The notes below the pieces were generated by a model that made no database searches, was not told the origin of the DNA, and was given only the letters and a program-made list of their open reading frames with translations. The position numbers and the translations under genes were made by a program. This document shows, one piece after another, positions 7,957 to 14,059 of a stretch of 64,000 nt of DNA. The stretch lies in assembly GCA_963169695.1 (NCBI GenBank), contig CAUJDS010000011.1, positions 57,001 to 121,000 on the forward strand. The letters are read 5' to 3'. The first letter of the stretch is position 1. The number at the start of each line of letters is the position of its first letter. Source of the stretch: Bdellovibrionota bacterium (lineage in GTDB: Bacteria; Bdellovibrionota; UBA1018; CAUJDS01).

Positions 7957-9123
7957 GTGGCAAGTTATCAATCTTTAGACTATTTGGAAACCGAGTCCCT
8001 ATTTAATGAAGACGAAATCCTTATTCGCGACTCAGTGCGTGACTATATGGAGTCCAACGTCCTACCCAAACTTCAAGAAGCCAATCGCAAAGAAGAATTT
8101 CCTATGGAAATTGTTCCAGGCATTGCCAAGTTAGGACTCCTTGGCGCCAACCTCAAAGGCTATGGTTGCGCGGGCATAGGGGATGTCGCCTATGGGTTGG
8201 TGATGCAGGAACTTGAGCGAGCCGATAGTGGAGTACGATCCTTTGTGTCCGTTCAAGGTGCGTTAGTCATGTATCCCATTCACACTTATGGCAGCGAGGA
8301 GCAAAAGCAGAAATACCTTCCTCACCTCGCGAGTGGAAAAATGATCGGTTGCTTTGGATTGACGGAGCCCGACTTCGGTTCTGATCCAGGCGGAATGATC
8401 ACGCGAGCCGAAAAGGTTTCTGGCGGCTACAAACTCAATGGCAATAAAATGTGGATCACCAACGGGTGCATTGCGGATGTCGCAGTGGTTTGGGCGAAGC
8501 TCGACGGCAAAGTTCGTGGCTTCTTAGTGGACAAAGGCACCAAGGGATTTTCAACCACGCGTATGAAAGGCAAATTTTCCTTACGAGTCAGCATCACCTC
8601 AGAATTGCATTTTCAAGATTGCGTTGTTCCAGAGACCAACCTCCTTCCTGGCGTCACAGGACTCAAAGGCCCTCTCTCTTGCCTTACTCAAGCTCGACAT
8701 GGAATTGCTTGGGGAGTGATCGGTGCTGCAACAACCTGCTACCAGACGGCCTTGGAATACACCAAGGCTCGCAAAATGTTTGACAAGCCCTTGGCTGGCT
8801 ACCAACTCATTCAAGCCAAGTTGGCTCGTATGGTTCAAGAAATCAGCAAAGCCCAACTCCTCGCTCACCATGTAGGACGACTCAAAGAAAAAGGCAGGCT
8901 TCAACCCCATCATGTTTCGCTCGCCAAGATGAACAACTGCCGAATGGCCCTCGATGTGGCCAGAGACGCAAGAGATATGCTCGGCGCCAATGGAATCATC
9001 GACGAGTATCCAGTGATACGTCATATGATGAATCTTGAGACCGTAAATACTTACGAAGGTACTGAGGACATTCACCGTCTTGTTATCGGTGCTGAAGTGA
9101 CTGGCTTGCCTGCCTATCGATGA
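7957..9123 (+). CDS. gcdH: Glutaryl-CoA dehydrogenase.
   Basis: 388 aa. Near-colinear similarity to eukaryotic and bacterial GCDH across the whole length (GYGCAG..., FGLTEPDFGSDP, GIAWGV, MNLETVNTYEGTEDIH). Confidence 0.9.
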   Translation: MASYQSLDYLETESLFNEDEILIRDSVRDYMESNVLPKLQEANRKEEFPMEIVPGIAKLGLLGANLKGYGCAGIGDVAYGLVMQELERADSGVRSFVSVQGALVMYPIHTYGSEEQKQKYLPHLASGKMIGCFGLTEPDFGSDPGGMITRAEKVSGGYKLNGNKMWITNGCIADVAVVWAKLDGKVRGFLVDKGTKGFSTTRMKGKFSLRVSITSELHFQDCVVPETNLLPGVTGLKGPLSCLTQARHGIAWGVIGAATTCYQTALEYTKARKMFDKPLAGYQLIQAKLARMVQEISKAQLLAHHVGRLKEKGRLQPHHVSLAKMNNCRMALDVARDARDMLGANGIIDEYPVIRHMMNLETVNTYEGTEDIHRLVIGAEVTGLPAYR

Positions 9124-9881: not shown

Positions 9882-9981
9882 TGGGCAGTGCATCGACGAA
9901 GTTAGAAATTTCCGTCATGGAGGCTACCTCCCATTCGCCAAAAAAAAAGACGGGCCTTGATGACCATCGATACCCAATAAA

Positions 9982-10021
9982 TTAGCAATTGCGTAATTTC
10001 GCAAGTTCTTATACAATGGAG
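9982..10021 (+). promoter_or_regulatory. Putative autoregulated promoter and operator of the toxin-antitoxin pair.
   Basis: Perfect palindrome TTGCG-taattt-CGCAA (about 9989-10004) overlaps a -35-like TTGCGT. A 17-bp spacer separates it from -10 TACAAT (about 10012-10017). GGAG Shine-Dalgarno precedes the ATG at 10026. Confidence 0.5.
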
Positions 10022-10025
10022 ACCT

Positions 10026-10331
10026 ATGCCTGGACAGCGCTCCTATAAAATAGCTCCCATTACAGTGAATGGCATTAAAATCGTTCGTGTGATCATCGAC
10101 AACCATTATAGAGAAAATCATGCTGAGCATATGAATGACGAGCTGATTCTAAAGTTGGTTATAGAGCTCGATGGCAGAAAAGAATTGCCAGAAACTAAAA
10201 CTGGGCAGTATTCGTACTTCGCTACTTTAATTGAATTAGATCAGAAGCAATACCGATTGATATGGCTACTTGAAGATCACGCGCTTTATGTAGGAGTTGT
10301 GAACGCTTACAGAGATAAAAGGAGGAAGTGA
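10026..10331 (+). CDS. DUF4258-like toxin of a type II toxin-antitoxin module.
   Basis: 101 aa. HYRENHAEHMNDELILKLVIELDG ... YRLIWLLEDHALYVGVVNAYRDK matches the DUF4258 pattern (HA.ERM.ER.I...L.G ... VVITAY). AT-rich (about 38% GC) islet. Followed 3 bp later by an XRE-HTH gene. Confidence 0.55.
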   Translation: MPGQRSYKIAPITVNGIKIVRVIIDNHYRENHAEHMNDELILKLVIELDGRKELPETKTGQYSYFATLIELDQKQYRLIWLLEDHALYVGVVNAYRDKRRK

Positions 10332-10334
10332 AAA

Positions 10335-10637
10335 GTGAGATTTCCAAGTGAAAGAGAATTAAAAACTATCCGTAAAAAACTGGAGAAGGTTGAGCCCTCT
10401 CGCACGCTTCCTAAAAATGCAAGCAAGGCTGACGAATTGAAATATAAACTTTGTGAGAAATTTGTATGCTACTTGCTTGATCATAAGATGACGCAAATTC
10501 AACTGGCAAAGAAACTCAAGATTGATCCGTCTCGAGTCAATGAAATTGTGAAATATAGAATTGATCTGTATACGATCGATAAGCTGATGGATCTTGCAGA
10601 GAAGCTCCGTTTGGAATTTGAAGTTGAAGTGGCTTAA
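10335..10637 (+). CDS. XRE-family helix-turn-helix antitoxin (HigA-like position downstream of the toxin).
   Basis: 100 aa. MTQIQLAKKLKIDPSRVNEIV is a canonical XRE HTH. Tightly coupled to the upstream toxin ORF. Confidence 0.6.
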   Translation: MRFPSERELKTIRKKLEKVEPSRTLPKNASKADELKYKLCEKFVCYLLDHKMTQIQLAKKLKIDPSRVNEIVKYRIDLYTIDKLMDLAEKLRLEFEVEVA

Positions 10638-10740: not shown

Positions 10741-13700
10741 TCAAGGCTCCGCCCTCAGAAGACGAAACCCAATGTCGCCGTAGCGAAGCTCGGGATGATA
10801 CCAACGCCGCCGAGAAGAGCGCAGATAACGGGCGTCGTGGCGCCAACTGCCGCCCCGAATCACTCGAGTGGAGTCCGCCTGGACGGCAGCACCGATGGGA
10901 TCCATCAAGGTCTGGCCAGAGGGGATATCCCCGTGTGCGTCCTCGCACCACTCCCAGACATTGCCAGCTATGTCATAAATCCCAAAATTATTGGGCTTAA
11001 GCCCTGCGACCGGATGGGTCTTGCTGCCAGAGTTGCTCTCGAAGTACGCATACTCAGGTAGATCGGATGCGCTCTTGCCAAAGAAATACTGCGTCTTGCT
11101 TCCAGCTCTTTGGAGGTACTCACGTTCGGCCTCGGATGGAAGGCGGTAGCTCCGGCCGGTAACTTCTGAGAGCTTCACAAGGTAGGCATGAGCGTCAGTC
11201 CAGCTGACTTGCTCAACAGGTCGATTGATGCGTTCGGGGGAGAAAACAGAGACTTTTATTCCGGCAGCGTTTTTATTGAAGTGGCTTGGGTCTTGTTTCA
11301 TCAAAAGCTGATACATCCCTTGAGTGACCGAGGCCTGCGCTGCAGAAAAAGCACGGGTCAAGACCACCTGGCGCTCGCCTTCGTCTTCGGGAGACCCCAT
11401 GGTGAAGCTCTTTCTCTCCCCACGTCTGATAATGGGCTGGTACTCAAAGCTCTCGGCCTTAGCGTATTTGGCAAAGTCCTCTAGCACGCCTTGGTCTTTG
11501 GCAAGCCGCCTAAAATGCAACAAATCCGATGTCGCATGAAAGGCTTTGATGAGTGGCTCTTGCTGAGAATGTGGAACTTCTTGGAGCAATTCTCCAAAGA
11601 CATCAAACGTACCGGATCCATGAGTCGCTTTGAGGATGGGGAGCTTAAACGACACATCGACTCCAGGATCTCGGATCCACCGAGTGATGCGATTGTTGAG
11701 TGCATCGACACGAGGATGGGGTTTTGTCTTAGGGCCTTTCCTAAGGATGCTCTGATAGGCGCGTATTGCTAGGTGATTTCTGGCAAGGTCTTCATCGCGC
11801 ACAAGCCTTATTGCTAAGGCCTTGCTTGAAGGAACTTGTGAACCAAGCGCCCAGCCAAGCTGTCTAGCAATCGCCGTATCATTGACAAGCTGTCGGATAA
11901 ATCTTCGGCCCATGGGCATGACGTAGGTCTCGAATTCAGTACCTTTTGCTAGGTTTGCAAAGTGCACCATGGGAGCCATTTCTGCCGTTGCAAGGGCATG
12001 CTTGGCTGCAACCAAGAGCGCCCGAGCCTTGTCATCGCTTAAGGCCTTGGAGTCCACAATCGCTTTTGCGAGGCCTGGCATGTGCTTAGTAAAGGCCACT
12101 TCAAGCGCTTCTCGAAACCTTGGGTCTGAGTTGTGCCGAAATTCTTGAAAAATTTGTAATCCATTCGAATCCGATAGTAGCGTGCGAAGGCTATGGGCCC
12201 GCGTATGCAGGTCGTACTTCAGTAAGTCCGTAAGACTAAATCCAAGACCTACGTCTTTGAGCTTTGTATACTCTGCTACCGTAAGCCCACGGGTATCGGT
12301 GAGTTCAATGACGGGCTTTGCAGCCTCAATCTGATCGGCACTAAGGCCCAAGGATGCTTGGACTTTGATAAGCATCTCTCCATCTTTGTCCCCTTCAATG
12401 GACTGAGCACCCAAGATCGCGCGCTCGAGTGCCGGAGTACTCTTGAGATTGGTGACAGGCTGATACCTTGCATGGTCCAAAGTGGTGACCACAATAGCTT
12501 GTTTCCCATCTTCTCCCGCAAGGATCCTCTCATCGTGTTGGAGTCTTACGAGATAGCCATTCTCAAGGTATTCTGCTTTGACATAGTTATGAGCATCTGG
12601 CTGATGGTCCGCCATGTACTGATCCAAGGCCTTCCAGCCCTGGGGAAGTGTGAAGCGAGCTTTCTCTTTGGCCCCTTCCATCAATCCCTCCTTGGCGGCT
12701 GGAGTGTTGTAGAGGTTGCTGTGCTTTTTGAGATCTGCCACCGCCACCTCTTGCACTCCGTAATCGTGTGCCACGAGCCTTCGCACCATTTCGACATCGG
12801 ATTTTTCTAACGTAGGGCCTTGGATCGAAATGACGTACGGAACGGATCTTCCACTTTCTTCCGCAAGAAAACTCAGAGCGTACCCGTCAGGTCTGGAGTT
12901 GGGGTTATCACCGAGACGGATGTAGTGTTTTTTGACTCGCTTAAGCAGCGACCAAAAAGGACCATTTTGAATCGAGCAATCATCCCCATAACACCCTGTC
13001 ACCATCCCCACGAGCGCCGGAAGCGTCTCAATCGATAGTGCTTGCACGGTTGGTGCAGGACCAGGGTCACCGGGAGGGCGAGGGATTTTTCTCATCGCTG
13101 CTTGGAAGTCTTTTTCGATCATCTGCTTGCGGATCCGTCCTAGCTGACGAGGCACTTCTCCTAGTCCTACCGACCTTCCTCCTTCTTTGGCTTCTACGGC
13201 AGCATTCACTAACGAGTCCAAATGATCCCCAAAGAAGTCTCCATAGAAGTTCTCAAGTTTTTCTGGAGTGCTAGCTAGGATGGCTCCTTCGATTTGAGGT
13301 AAATCATTTGAGAGATTCTTAAACTTCGCTTTGCCATCACCATCAAATAAATACGGCGCAACCTTAAGCAATCGATCCACCTGGGCCTGAAAACCCTTTG
13401 CATCGTGCAAGCCTTGCCCATTGACGGCTTGAGCTTTGAGCTGCTTAAGTGCTCCCAGAAAACTTCCCGGCTCGCCATGAAGAAGGATCGCCCTAAGATC
13501 TTCCACACGGGCTTGCTTGAATGCTTGGATCGCACCCACATTGTAAATCTTGCTATCTGCTGATTTCAGGTACCTAAGGCTTGTGATCCTAGGTCCATGG
13601 ATCTGAAGGCCCGCAAAGTCCTCTCCCAATACCTTCTTCAAACCCGGAACATGCGAGTACAACTCCAAGAGACTTCTGCGGTACTGAAGGTTGGCAGTCA

Positions 13701-13881
13701 CTTGATCCGGGTGCTCATTCAATAGACTTAGGATAAAACTCAGCTGCTCTTCCGTCGTATCTACCTTCGCCGTCCATGCTTTCTGCAGGCAATCGCGCAC
13801 GCTTCCCCACGCCGGCGCAACTGCACAACACGTCAAAACCAGCGCTGAAATCAGCAACCTAACCCTCACCGCACACTCCAT
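10741..13881 (-). CDS. Large secreted protein with a C-terminal formylglycine-generating enzyme (FGE/SUMF1, DUF323) domain. The N-terminal ~850 aa have no recognisable domain.
   Basis: The C-terminal ~200 aa carry the FGE-sulfatase signature (SWTDAHAYLVKL..., GNVWEWCEDAH, RVIRGGSWRHDARYLRSSRR, GFRL). The likely start is the ATG at 13881 (MECAVRVRLLISALVLTCCAVAPAWG signal peptide), not the track start at 14031. Confidence 0.65.
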   Translation of the reverse strand: MECAVRVRLLISALVLTCCAVAPAWGSVRDCLQKAWTAKVDTTEEQLSFILSLLNEHPDQVTANLQYRRSLLELYSHVPGLKKVLGEDFAGLQIHGPRITSLRYLKSADSKIYNVGAIQAFKQARVEDLRAILLHGEPGSFLGALKQLKAQAVNGQGLHDAKGFQAQVDRLLKVAPYLFDGDGKAKFKNLSNDLPQIEGAILASTPEKLENFYGDFFGDHLDSLVNAAVEAKEGGRSVGLGEVPRQLGRIRKQMIEKDFQAAMRKIPRPPGDPGPAPTVQALSIETLPALVGMVTGCYGDDCSIQNGPFWSLLKRVKKHYIRLGDNPNSRPDGYALSFLAEESGRSVPYVISIQGPTLEKSDVEMVRRLVAHDYGVQEVAVADLKKHSNLYNTPAAKEGLMEGAKEKARFTLPQGWKALDQYMADHQPDAHNYVKAEYLENGYLVRLQHDERILAGEDGKQAIVVTTLDHARYQPVTNLKSTPALERAILGAQSIEGDKDGEMLIKVQASLGLSADQIEAAKPVIELTDTRGLTVAEYTKLKDVGLGFSLTDLLKYDLHTRAHSLRTLLSDSNGLQIFQEFRHNSDPRFREALEVAFTKHMPGLAKAIVDSKALSDDKARALLVAAKHALATAEMAPMVHFANLAKGTEFETYVMPMGRRFIRQLVNDTAIARQLGWALGSQVPSSKALAIRLVRDEDLARNHLAIRAYQSILRKGPKTKPHPRVDALNNRITRWIRDPGVDVSFKLPILKATHGSGTFDVFGELLQEVPHSQQEPLIKAFHATSDLLHFRRLAKDQGVLEDFAKYAKAESFEYQPIIRRGERKSFTMGSPEDEGERQVVLTRAFSAAQASVTQGMYQLLMKQDPSHFNKNAAGIKVSVFSPERINRPVEQVSWTDAHAYLVKLSEVTGRSYRLPSEAEREYLQRAGSKTQYFFGKSASDLPEYAYFESNSGSKTHPVAGLKPNNFGIYDIAGNVWEWCEDAHGDIPSGQTLMDPIGAAVQADSTRVIRGGSWRHDARYLRSSRRRWYHPELRYGDIGFRLLRAEP

Positions 13882-14059
13882 CGCTCTCCTGTCGGCATGA
13901 CAAAGGACATATTTTATGCACACACCCGAATCACCTCGAATTTTACTTCCTAGGGATTCTGAGCGCCATCCGACGTGGTCTTTGTAAACCTTTGACGGCG
14001 CAGATTCAAAGCAATGGTCTCCAAAAAGCACTTTGAGTCATTTTTTTGACTCTCCTACC

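Follow-up and report, generated by a model that had tools for sequence, protein, structure and literature searches.

A probable toxin-first type II toxin-antitoxin operon with a conserved promoter operator in a Bdellovibrionota chromosome

Locus organization

The DNA analysed here is a 64,000-nucleotide stretch of contig CAUJDS010000011.1 (positions 57,001 to 121,000 of the forward strand) from the Bdellovibrionota bacterium assembly GCA_963169695.1, hereafter referred to as the window. Positions 9982-10637 of the window hold two small co-oriented open reading frames, ORF1 and ORF2, together with a short palindrome and promoter-like hexamers (Table 1), an arrangement that we interpret as probably representing a chromosomal type II toxin-antitoxin (TA) operon with the toxin gene first and a repressor-operator at its promoter. 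An earlier note on this DNA had reported two small ORFs of 101 and 100 aa with 3-bp spacing, and the coordinates and the stop and start codons agree with this description: the TGA stop of ORF1 is followed directly by a gap of three nucleotides (AAA) and by the start codon of ORF2.

The segment has a GC content of 38.4%, against a mean of 49.7% for the window, and is the lowest-GC 656-bp segment in the 64 kb, with 0.06% of sliding windows equally low; its direct flanks have a GC content of 0.50-0.61. The earlier description of an AT-rich islet holds, while the 52% GC that had been given for its surroundings is slightly high for the window and fair for the flanks. A search for direct or inverted repeats marking an insertion around the islet returned chance-level short matches only, Rfam and tRNA scans found nothing in or near it, and a metagenome scan using the neighbouring TauE-family gene found no empty site that would define its boundaries. 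The identical gene pair was found in four Logan assemblies in the same context, consisting of an acyl-CoA dehydrogenase gene, a TauE-family gene, the toxin and antitoxin genes and a gene for a protein with an FGE-sulfatase domain.

Table 1. Positions of the predicted features in the window, and feature positions and sequence variants in related loci (given with the locus handle).
Feature	Position	Strand	Remarks
Predicted operator, dyad TTGCGtaatttCGCAA (TTGCG-taattt-CGCAA)	9989-10004	.	Perfect 5-bp arms; predicted ORF2-dimer site
-35-like hexamer TTGCGT	9989-9994	+	Same as left operator arm; 3/6 consensus positions
-10-like hexamer TACAAT	10012-10017	+	17 nt past the -35; read from the sequence
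ORF1, predicted toxin gene	10026-10331	+	ATG start, 101 aa
Antitoxin Shine-Dalgarno AGGAGG	10320-10325	+	In toxin C-terminal Arg codons; 9 nt before GTG
ORF2, predicted antitoxin/autorepressor gene	10335-10637	+	GTG start, 100 aa
Antitoxin residues 1-30, predicted toxin-neutralising segment	10335-10424	+	Motif M-G/R-F-P-S-E-K-E-L..., conserved in both clades
Recognition helix region, residues 64-75, DPSRVNEIVKYR	10524-10559	+	AlphaFold2 helix 65-72; sequence switches with arm type
Operator arm CG			Recognition helix DPSRINEIVKYR
Operator arm CC			Recognition helix D(K/E)AKVSKILHHR
Operator arm TC			Recognition helix xKxDMSRIFNHR
Operator arm GGACA...TGTCC			Recognition helix DESLMSKVLRYR
Toxin disruption, TGG>TGA at invariant W80 codon	L002, L008		Independent
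Toxin disruption, in-frame stops	L027, L052		
Toxin disruption, frameshifts	L015, L055, L059		
Toxin disruption, heavily decayed or N-terminally deleted remnants	L054, L056, L057, L060-L063		
Tyrosine recombinase	L025:239-1270; L026:2621-3832; L032:513-1622		
Second ParE-like/HTH pair	L004:3265-3883; L021; L027		

The ORF2 product

The product of ORF2 matched the helix-turn-helix (HTH) family HTH_37 (PF13744) with an E-value of 3.2e-8 and a score of 33.7 bits (cut-off 27), as well as HTH_3 exactly at its cut-off, in keeping with the XRE helix-turn-helix recognized in the earlier note. All 290 database homologues of ORF2 (290/290) carry PF13744 and are named as XRE-type regulators. Against the TIGR02607 (HigA) equivalog the protein scored 16 bits, below the cut-off of 47.7, and PADLOC models returned weak generic HTH matches only (E about 0.007-0.016) and no defence-system match. 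Antitoxins of the HTH_37 class pair with RelE-superfamily toxins in toxin-first order (PMC7157771).

In an AlphaFold2 (AF2) model of ORF2, the HTH core (residues 31-95) is well folded, with predicted local distance difference test (pLDDT) values of 87-91. The 30 N-terminal residues are modelled with a pLDDT of 51-59, yet F3, P4, L9, L16, E20, P21 and S22 are invariant among them. A segment that is modelled with low confidence but is invariant in sequence is the usual picture for the partner-binding segment of an antitoxin, and this N-terminus would thus be the part of ORF2 that neutralises the toxin.

The ORF1 product and its family

ORF1 had zero matches to Pfam, NCBIfam and PADLOC models at E<=10, the PADLOC defence-system models included, and no usable match among PHROGs. 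Its 221 close homologues (59-79% identity, all about 101 aa) are likewise without a Pfam domain, and the named ones are hypothetical proteins from Bdellovibrionota metagenome-assembled genomes (MAGs). A profile search run exhaustively over 1.84 billion cluster representatives returned only 333 clusters at E<=1e-3; these approximately 330 toxin-family clusters are counted at 50% identity and correspond to hundreds of sequences. The most conserved residues of ORF1 are H27, K31-H32, Y64, Y76-R77, N93 and R96. Across 70 divergent members of the family (mean identity 34%), H32 is the sole invariant residue, and conservation reaches at least 90% for N15, I24, H27, I41, Y64, Y76, L78, G90 and R96.

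The AF2 model of ORF1 (pLDDT 84.4; predicted template-modelling score 0.74) consists of a beta-hairpin (residues 5-24), two helices (27-32 and 38-46) and four strands (57-95), the helices lying on a four-stranded antiparallel sheet as in BECR toxins. Bona fide toxins dominate the structure-search list obtained with this model, and the nearest solved structures are those of BrnT; a Foldseek search against PDB and BFVD returned nothing below E=1e-3. By sequence and secondary structure, K31-H32 and R96 occupy positions analogous to BrnT K16-H17 and R72. These BrnT residues, together with K9, H10 and R69 of RelS, matter for toxicity (PMC13284704, citing Heaton 2012 for BrnT). On the strength of the predicted fold, we call the ORF1 family a putative, unclassified and undescribed family of BECR toxins whose nearest solved structures are BrnT.

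The earlier note had assigned ORF1 to the DUF4258 toxin-like pattern, and the most serious alternative to the assignment made here is a refinement of that proposal, in which ORF1 would be a divergent DUF4258 protein (PF14076, also known as Ntox49) of the colicin-like BECR type, most likely a tRNA anticodon nuclease and not BrnT/RelE-like. A 2026 preprint assigns the DUF4258 family to the colicin-like branch of BECR RNases, whose defining features are a "pre-alpha" helix bearing a catalytic His and beta4, sometimes with strands added before the pre-alpha helix (bioRxiv 10.64898/2026.08.28.747851). The ORF1 model, with two extra N-terminal strands, a short His-bearing helix, a core helix and four strands, fits this layout, as does a conservation that is centred on H27 and H32 in the first helix and on N93 and R96 in the last strand; the partners of DUF4258 proteins are moreover strictly downstream in E. 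coli (PMC10790755). Having H27/H32 in the first helix and R96 in the last strand would nevertheless suit the colicin-like and the BrnT K16-H17...R72 layouts equally well. Two of the 70 divergent members did match PF14076 weakly, below threshold (best E=0.03), but two weak matches among 70 proteins searched against 24,736 models are within noise, and PF14076 was unmatched at E<=10 by ORF1 itself, by the family consensus, by distant-clade members and by nine divergent members. With BrnT, and not colicin-like proteins, as the nearest solved structures, we did not retain the DUF4258 label and regard a divergent DUF4258 identity as improbable.

The hidden Markov models for DUF4258, HigB and BrnT, proposed in the earlier note as means to pin down the toxin family, all failed to fit ORF1; nor was the protein placed in a non-toxin family, no family being matched at all. 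The HigB/Gp49 models PF05973, PF05015 and PF09907 were unmatched. Membership in BrnT by sequence was also considered and rejected: PF04365 gave no match, and an hhalign comparison of the family (A3) with a BrnT alignment yielded a probability of 0.2% (E=0.32), with a sensitivity limited by the shallow BrnT alignment (Neff about 2). This comparison aligned the last strand only (YIGVINAF with VIRIISAR). Sequence and profile searches of ORF1 against PDB gave spurious matches to ferritin and CITED2, or none. Homologues of 147-177 aa that could be taken for toxin-antitoxin fusions are N-terminal mis-calls, in which the operator has been translated as "IAKFRN".

Pairing, context and decay in related loci

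A scan of one genome per species identified 63 related loci, nearly all of them in Bdellovibrionota MAGs, several of which carry two or three copies. In all but one of the 63 loci, which is cut by a contig end, the gene directly after the ORF1 homologue is an ORF2 homologue (62 of 63), and nothing else in the flanks of the pair is conserved across loci. The module thus shows the co-inheritance of small, adjacent, co-oriented genes, independently of their neighbours, that is generic to type II systems. In 50 of 62 loci its AT content exceeds that of the flanks. Six loci have a gene for a tyrosine recombinase (phage integrase family) in the flank, and at least four of these (L025, L026, L032, L059) have it immediately before the toxin gene. 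Three or four loci have another toxin-first pair, with a weak ParE_toxin match and an HTH_31/HTH_3 protein, just downstream. These island-like and mobile contexts suggest that the module resides in TA-rich integrative islands.

The two genes decay unequally. Of 60 assessable loci, 14 have a disrupted toxin gene and one has a disrupted antitoxin gene (Fisher p=4.6e-4), even though both genes are equally long. Such a bias, with the first gene lost and the second kept, is what one would predict for a first gene that does harm on its own. The disruptions include stops, frameshifts and remnants (Table 1), and we read the W80 TGA codons of two loci as a probable case of convergent nonsense inactivation, judging from the sequences. 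These two loci (L002:4001-4297 and L008:4001-4294) come from different MAGs, their toxins are 74% and 68% identical to ORF1, and the rest of the ORF and the antitoxin are intact in both.

One of the loci also carries, at L024:5430-5973, a distant 99-aa toxin paralogue that lacks the N-terminal hairpin and is followed by a gene for a 97-aa RHH/CopG-like protein (PF12441, CopG_antitoxin; E=0.02, below cut-off). This pairing suggests that the toxin family has exchanged antitoxin types, as is typical of TA toxins.

An alternative in which the module is not a TA system at all would see ORF1 as a harmless accessory or co-regulator of ORF2, such as an anti-repressor or a small effector-binding partner, in a two-gene regulatory cassette. 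The lack of family annotation for ORF1 and its modest fold-match scores would fit such a role, and so would the many loci in which ORF2 accompanies a decayed ORF1, given that ORF2 then persists without a working partner. Against this stand the strong skew of inactivating mutations towards ORF1, a fold-search list made up mostly of bona fide toxins, and the presence of conserved His, Lys and Arg residues at places analogous to the catalytic residues of BrnT, as well as the occurrence of several module copies per genome in variable, island-like contexts and the distant paralogue with its different, RHH-like partner, a common situation for toxins. We consider a harmless ORF1 very unlikely, and retain the reading of ORF1 as the toxin of a TA pair.

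Relatives of the module were not found among 50,697 phage records, 72,556 plasmids and the IMG/VR contigs. The single tblastn match among the plasmids, from Rhizobium, lies antisense inside an ABC-transporter gene and was rejected as spurious, and a Clostridium phage match (21% identity, E=5) falls inside a gene for a 320-aa hypothetical protein that follows a minor tail protein gene.

Three of the loci (L039, L052 and L054) come from MAG contigs of 0.43-0.98 Mb labelled Lysobacteraceae (JAGTJX010000003.1, JAGTJX010000004.1 and JAGTJX010000001.1, respectively), and the MAGs of L009 and L048 are labelled Streptomyces griseus or Nitrospirae, every other carrier being a member of the Bdellovibrionota. 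We suspect errors of binning or naming behind these labels, the alternative being rare transfer outside the phylum.

Operator and promoter

The earlier note had drawn attention to a perfect palindrome overlapping a sigma70-like -35/-10 pair with 17-bp spacing, in which it saw the operator of an autorepressing antitoxin. This geometry is present in the window and is kept across the related loci. Within the window the palindrome is not unusual, with two exact TTGCG-N6-CGCAA occurrences and one-mismatch counts in line with shuffled sequence. Taken alone, both palindrome and promoter are weak, and their reality was therefore judged by comparison with related loci; it is from conservation in those sequences that the palindrome draws its significance as a predicted operator.

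Of 62 related loci, 38 have a perfect dyad of the form TTGxy-N6-y'x'CAA 5' of the toxin gene, against a background of 0.007 per 140 nt elsewhere in the same loci, and most of the remaining loci have a one-mismatch version. The two variable arm positions differ by clade (CG, CC, TC, CT, TG, CA, AT) while dyad symmetry is retained, and arm type tracks the recognition-helix sequence of the neighbouring antitoxin across loci (Table 1). This co-variation of arm and helix speaks clearly for recognition of the dyad by the ORF2 protein. The left arm invariably reads TTGnnA/T in the related loci, and a TAnnnT hexamer, often TG-extended, follows exactly 17 bp downstream; the predicted operator therefore overlaps the -35 element of the putative operon promoter. 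With the dyad kept, its arms tracking the recognition helix and its left arm coinciding with the -35, the earlier proposal of an operator at the promoter gains considerable support. The combination of a DNA-binding antitoxin with an operator at the promoter that is generic to type II systems would be provided here by HTH_37 and the conserved dyad.

That the palindrome instead acts in RNA, as a weak terminator of the upstream TauE-family gene or as a structure of the 5' untranslated region, is highly improbable: a terminator scan does flag 9989-10004 with the T-rich stretch after it, compensatory changes in the arms would keep a hairpin too, and the one-mismatch variants mostly carry a C>T change on the + strand that leaves them G-U compatible, but the stem is of 5 bp and the region folds no better than shuffled sequence (z=-0.35), the arms vary together with the recognition helix of the neighbouring HTH protein, a hairpin has no need of a constant TTG and a -10-like hexamer exactly 17 bp away, and the dyad travels with the module while the upstream genes vary among loci.

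Among the one-mismatch operators, nearly all (L009, L010, L022, L024, L025, L028, L032, L049 and L059) deviate by a C>T change on the + strand, as in TTGCT...GGCAA or ...CGTAA, with G-U compatibility in RNA retained, and only L054 is of the opposite type. Shared ancestry or mutation bias may account for this pattern.

Expression signals

In the window, the toxin ATG sits 8 nt past the TACAAT hexamer, and across 33 intact loci the distance from the -10 to the toxin start is 4-10 nt in 29, with a mode of 6. The toxin mRNA is therefore inferred to be leaderless or nearly so. In 58 of 63 loci, a Shine-Dalgarno core of 5 nt or more precedes the antitoxin start. Judging from these signals, a leaderless toxin gene combined with a strong antitoxin Shine-Dalgarno would produce an excess of antitoxin despite the toxin-first order.

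Interpretation and comparison with known systems

The earlier note had proposed a reverse, toxin-first order (higBA-like) with an XRE-type antitoxin. Pairing in 62 of 63 loci, unrelated flanks, asymmetric decay and the BECR model of ORF1 all speak for this proposal, and the comparative evidence makes a functional TA system a well supported reading of these sequences. Both genes would share one promoter (TTGCGT-17 nt-TACAAT), the -35 of which overlaps the dyad operator, and a dimer of ORF2 bound to the dyad would repress the operon. The first gene would encode an endoribonuclease that arrests translation, with the first-helix pair K31-H32 and the R96 that closes the last strand taking the roles of BrnT K16-H17 and R72, while the flexible, conserved residues 1-30 of ORF2 would wrap around the toxin and block its active site. 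Translation of the toxin from a leaderless or near-leaderless mRNA would be poor, and that of the antitoxin, from the AGGAGG in the Arg-rich tail of the toxin gene, efficient. Loss or degradation of the antitoxin would then both free the toxin and de-repress the promoter.

Several observations weigh against this interpretation. ORF1 has no sequence-level link to any toxin family, and its K-H...R match to BrnT is based on motif position and not on residue-level superposition. A generic promoter scan missed the window promoter, because the TTGCGT -35 agrees with the consensus at 3/6 positions only. A leaderless toxin mRNA follows only if the promoter is correctly assigned; should transcription begin further upstream, the 8 nt ahead of the ATG (GGAGACCT) could serve as a Shine-Dalgarno sequence. 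Some of the toxin disruptions are possibly MAG assembly errors, although such errors leave the asymmetry between toxin and antitoxin unaccounted for.

Among characterized systems, the BrnT/BrnA module (Brucella abortus, PF04365, PDB 3U97; Salmonella homologue PDB 7VD7) offers close parallels: a toxin-first order and a small BECR toxin of about 80-100 aa are common to both, the Lys-His pair of the first helix and the Arg that ends the last strand lie at apparently matching positions, and the C-terminal strand, VVNAYR in the family described here, resembles IISARK. The extra N-terminal beta-hairpin (residues 5-24) is found in this family only, the spacing from the conserved Asp to the KH pair is one helical turn shorter here, and the antitoxin is an HTH_37 protein, whereas BrnA is an RHH protein; an RHH-like partner occurs only at the L024 paralogue. 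The RelS/RelI pair of M. tuberculosis (Rv2663-Rv2664; PMC13284704), in which a BrnT-like toxin missed by standard models was recently recognized, likewise has a toxin-first order and an HTH-containing antitoxin. RelS needs its K-H pair and C-terminal Arg for toxicity, and ORF1 has such residues. RelS cuts the 3' end of 16S rRNA (PMC13284704). The two modules have no detectable sequence similarity, and RelI is a ClpC2-like HTH protein with no detected operator, in contrast to the clear, conserved operator found here.

The HigB/HigA class that combines Gp49 (PF05973) with HTH_37 (PF13744), as seen for instance on Tn3-family transposons, shares with this module the toxin-first order, the HTH_37 antitoxin and a toxin of the RelE/BECR superfamily, and autoregulation at a promoter operator is expected for it. 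The toxin described here differs in having no Gp49, HigB or HigB-like match, and its antitoxin falls below the TIGR02607 cut-off. HigB toxins are ribosome-dependent mRNases, whereas nothing here points to ribosome dependence. The present family was found on Bdellovibrionota chromosomes only, with none on plasmids, phages or IMG/VR contigs. DUF4258 (PF14076/Ntox49), which like the present family is biochemically uncharacterised, comprises small BECR toxins with a downstream partner and a conserved His in the pre-core helix, but its reported typical partners are MqsA-like (fusions, PMC11980606) and not HTH_37 proteins.

The design of the operon is therefore ordinary: it would work like BrnTA or HigBA, leaves current understanding as it stands, and would be unsurprising to a TA specialist. 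What is new, and well supported as such, is the toxin family, which adds to a familiar class a group with no curated Pfam, NCBIfam, PADLOC or PHROGs membership and an extra N-terminal hairpin. The family is invisible to the Pfam, NCBIfam and PADLOC copies that were searched (TAfinder, TASmania and SLING being outside the search), and model-dependent tools are expected to miss it. All of its members are annotated as hypothetical proteins, and its recognition is useful for the annotation of Bdellovibrionota genomes. Operator and recognition-helix variants also come in matched sets across the loci (CG, CC, TC, AT, TG and CA arms), a natural series that may provide a compact model for the evolution of HTH_37 specificity and for the co-evolution of operator and HTH. 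The pairing of a putatively leaderless toxin message with a Shine-Dalgarno in the toxin tail suggests a simple route to the right toxin-to-antitoxin ratio in toxin-first operons. A bolder proposal goes well beyond this and seems doubtful to us: that ORF1 founds a BECR ribonuclease family confined to the predatory Bdellovibrionota, with its own RNA target (a tRNA or rRNA site), a leaderless-toxin logic in which the Arg codons of the toxin tail double as the antitoxin Shine-Dalgarno, and a role in growth arrest or phage defence within their biphasic life cycle.

Neighbouring genes

On the right-hand side of the module, a 1096-aa ORF on the - strand (10741-14031) converges on the islet. Its C-terminal part carries an FGE-sulfatase domain (PF03781, from precomputed calls), and its N-terminal ~700 residues have no recorded domain. 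On the other side, the intergenic region that follows the TauE-family gene holds a hairpin (9919-9948; GGAGG-cta-CCTCC) followed by nine A, which forms no canonical terminator on either strand. The TauE-family gene itself (PF01925; 9120-9881) has been given two different starts in public assemblies, with products of 235 and 253 aa, the longer form beginning at an ATG that shares bases with the stop codon of the acyl-CoA dehydrogenase gene before it (7957-9123).

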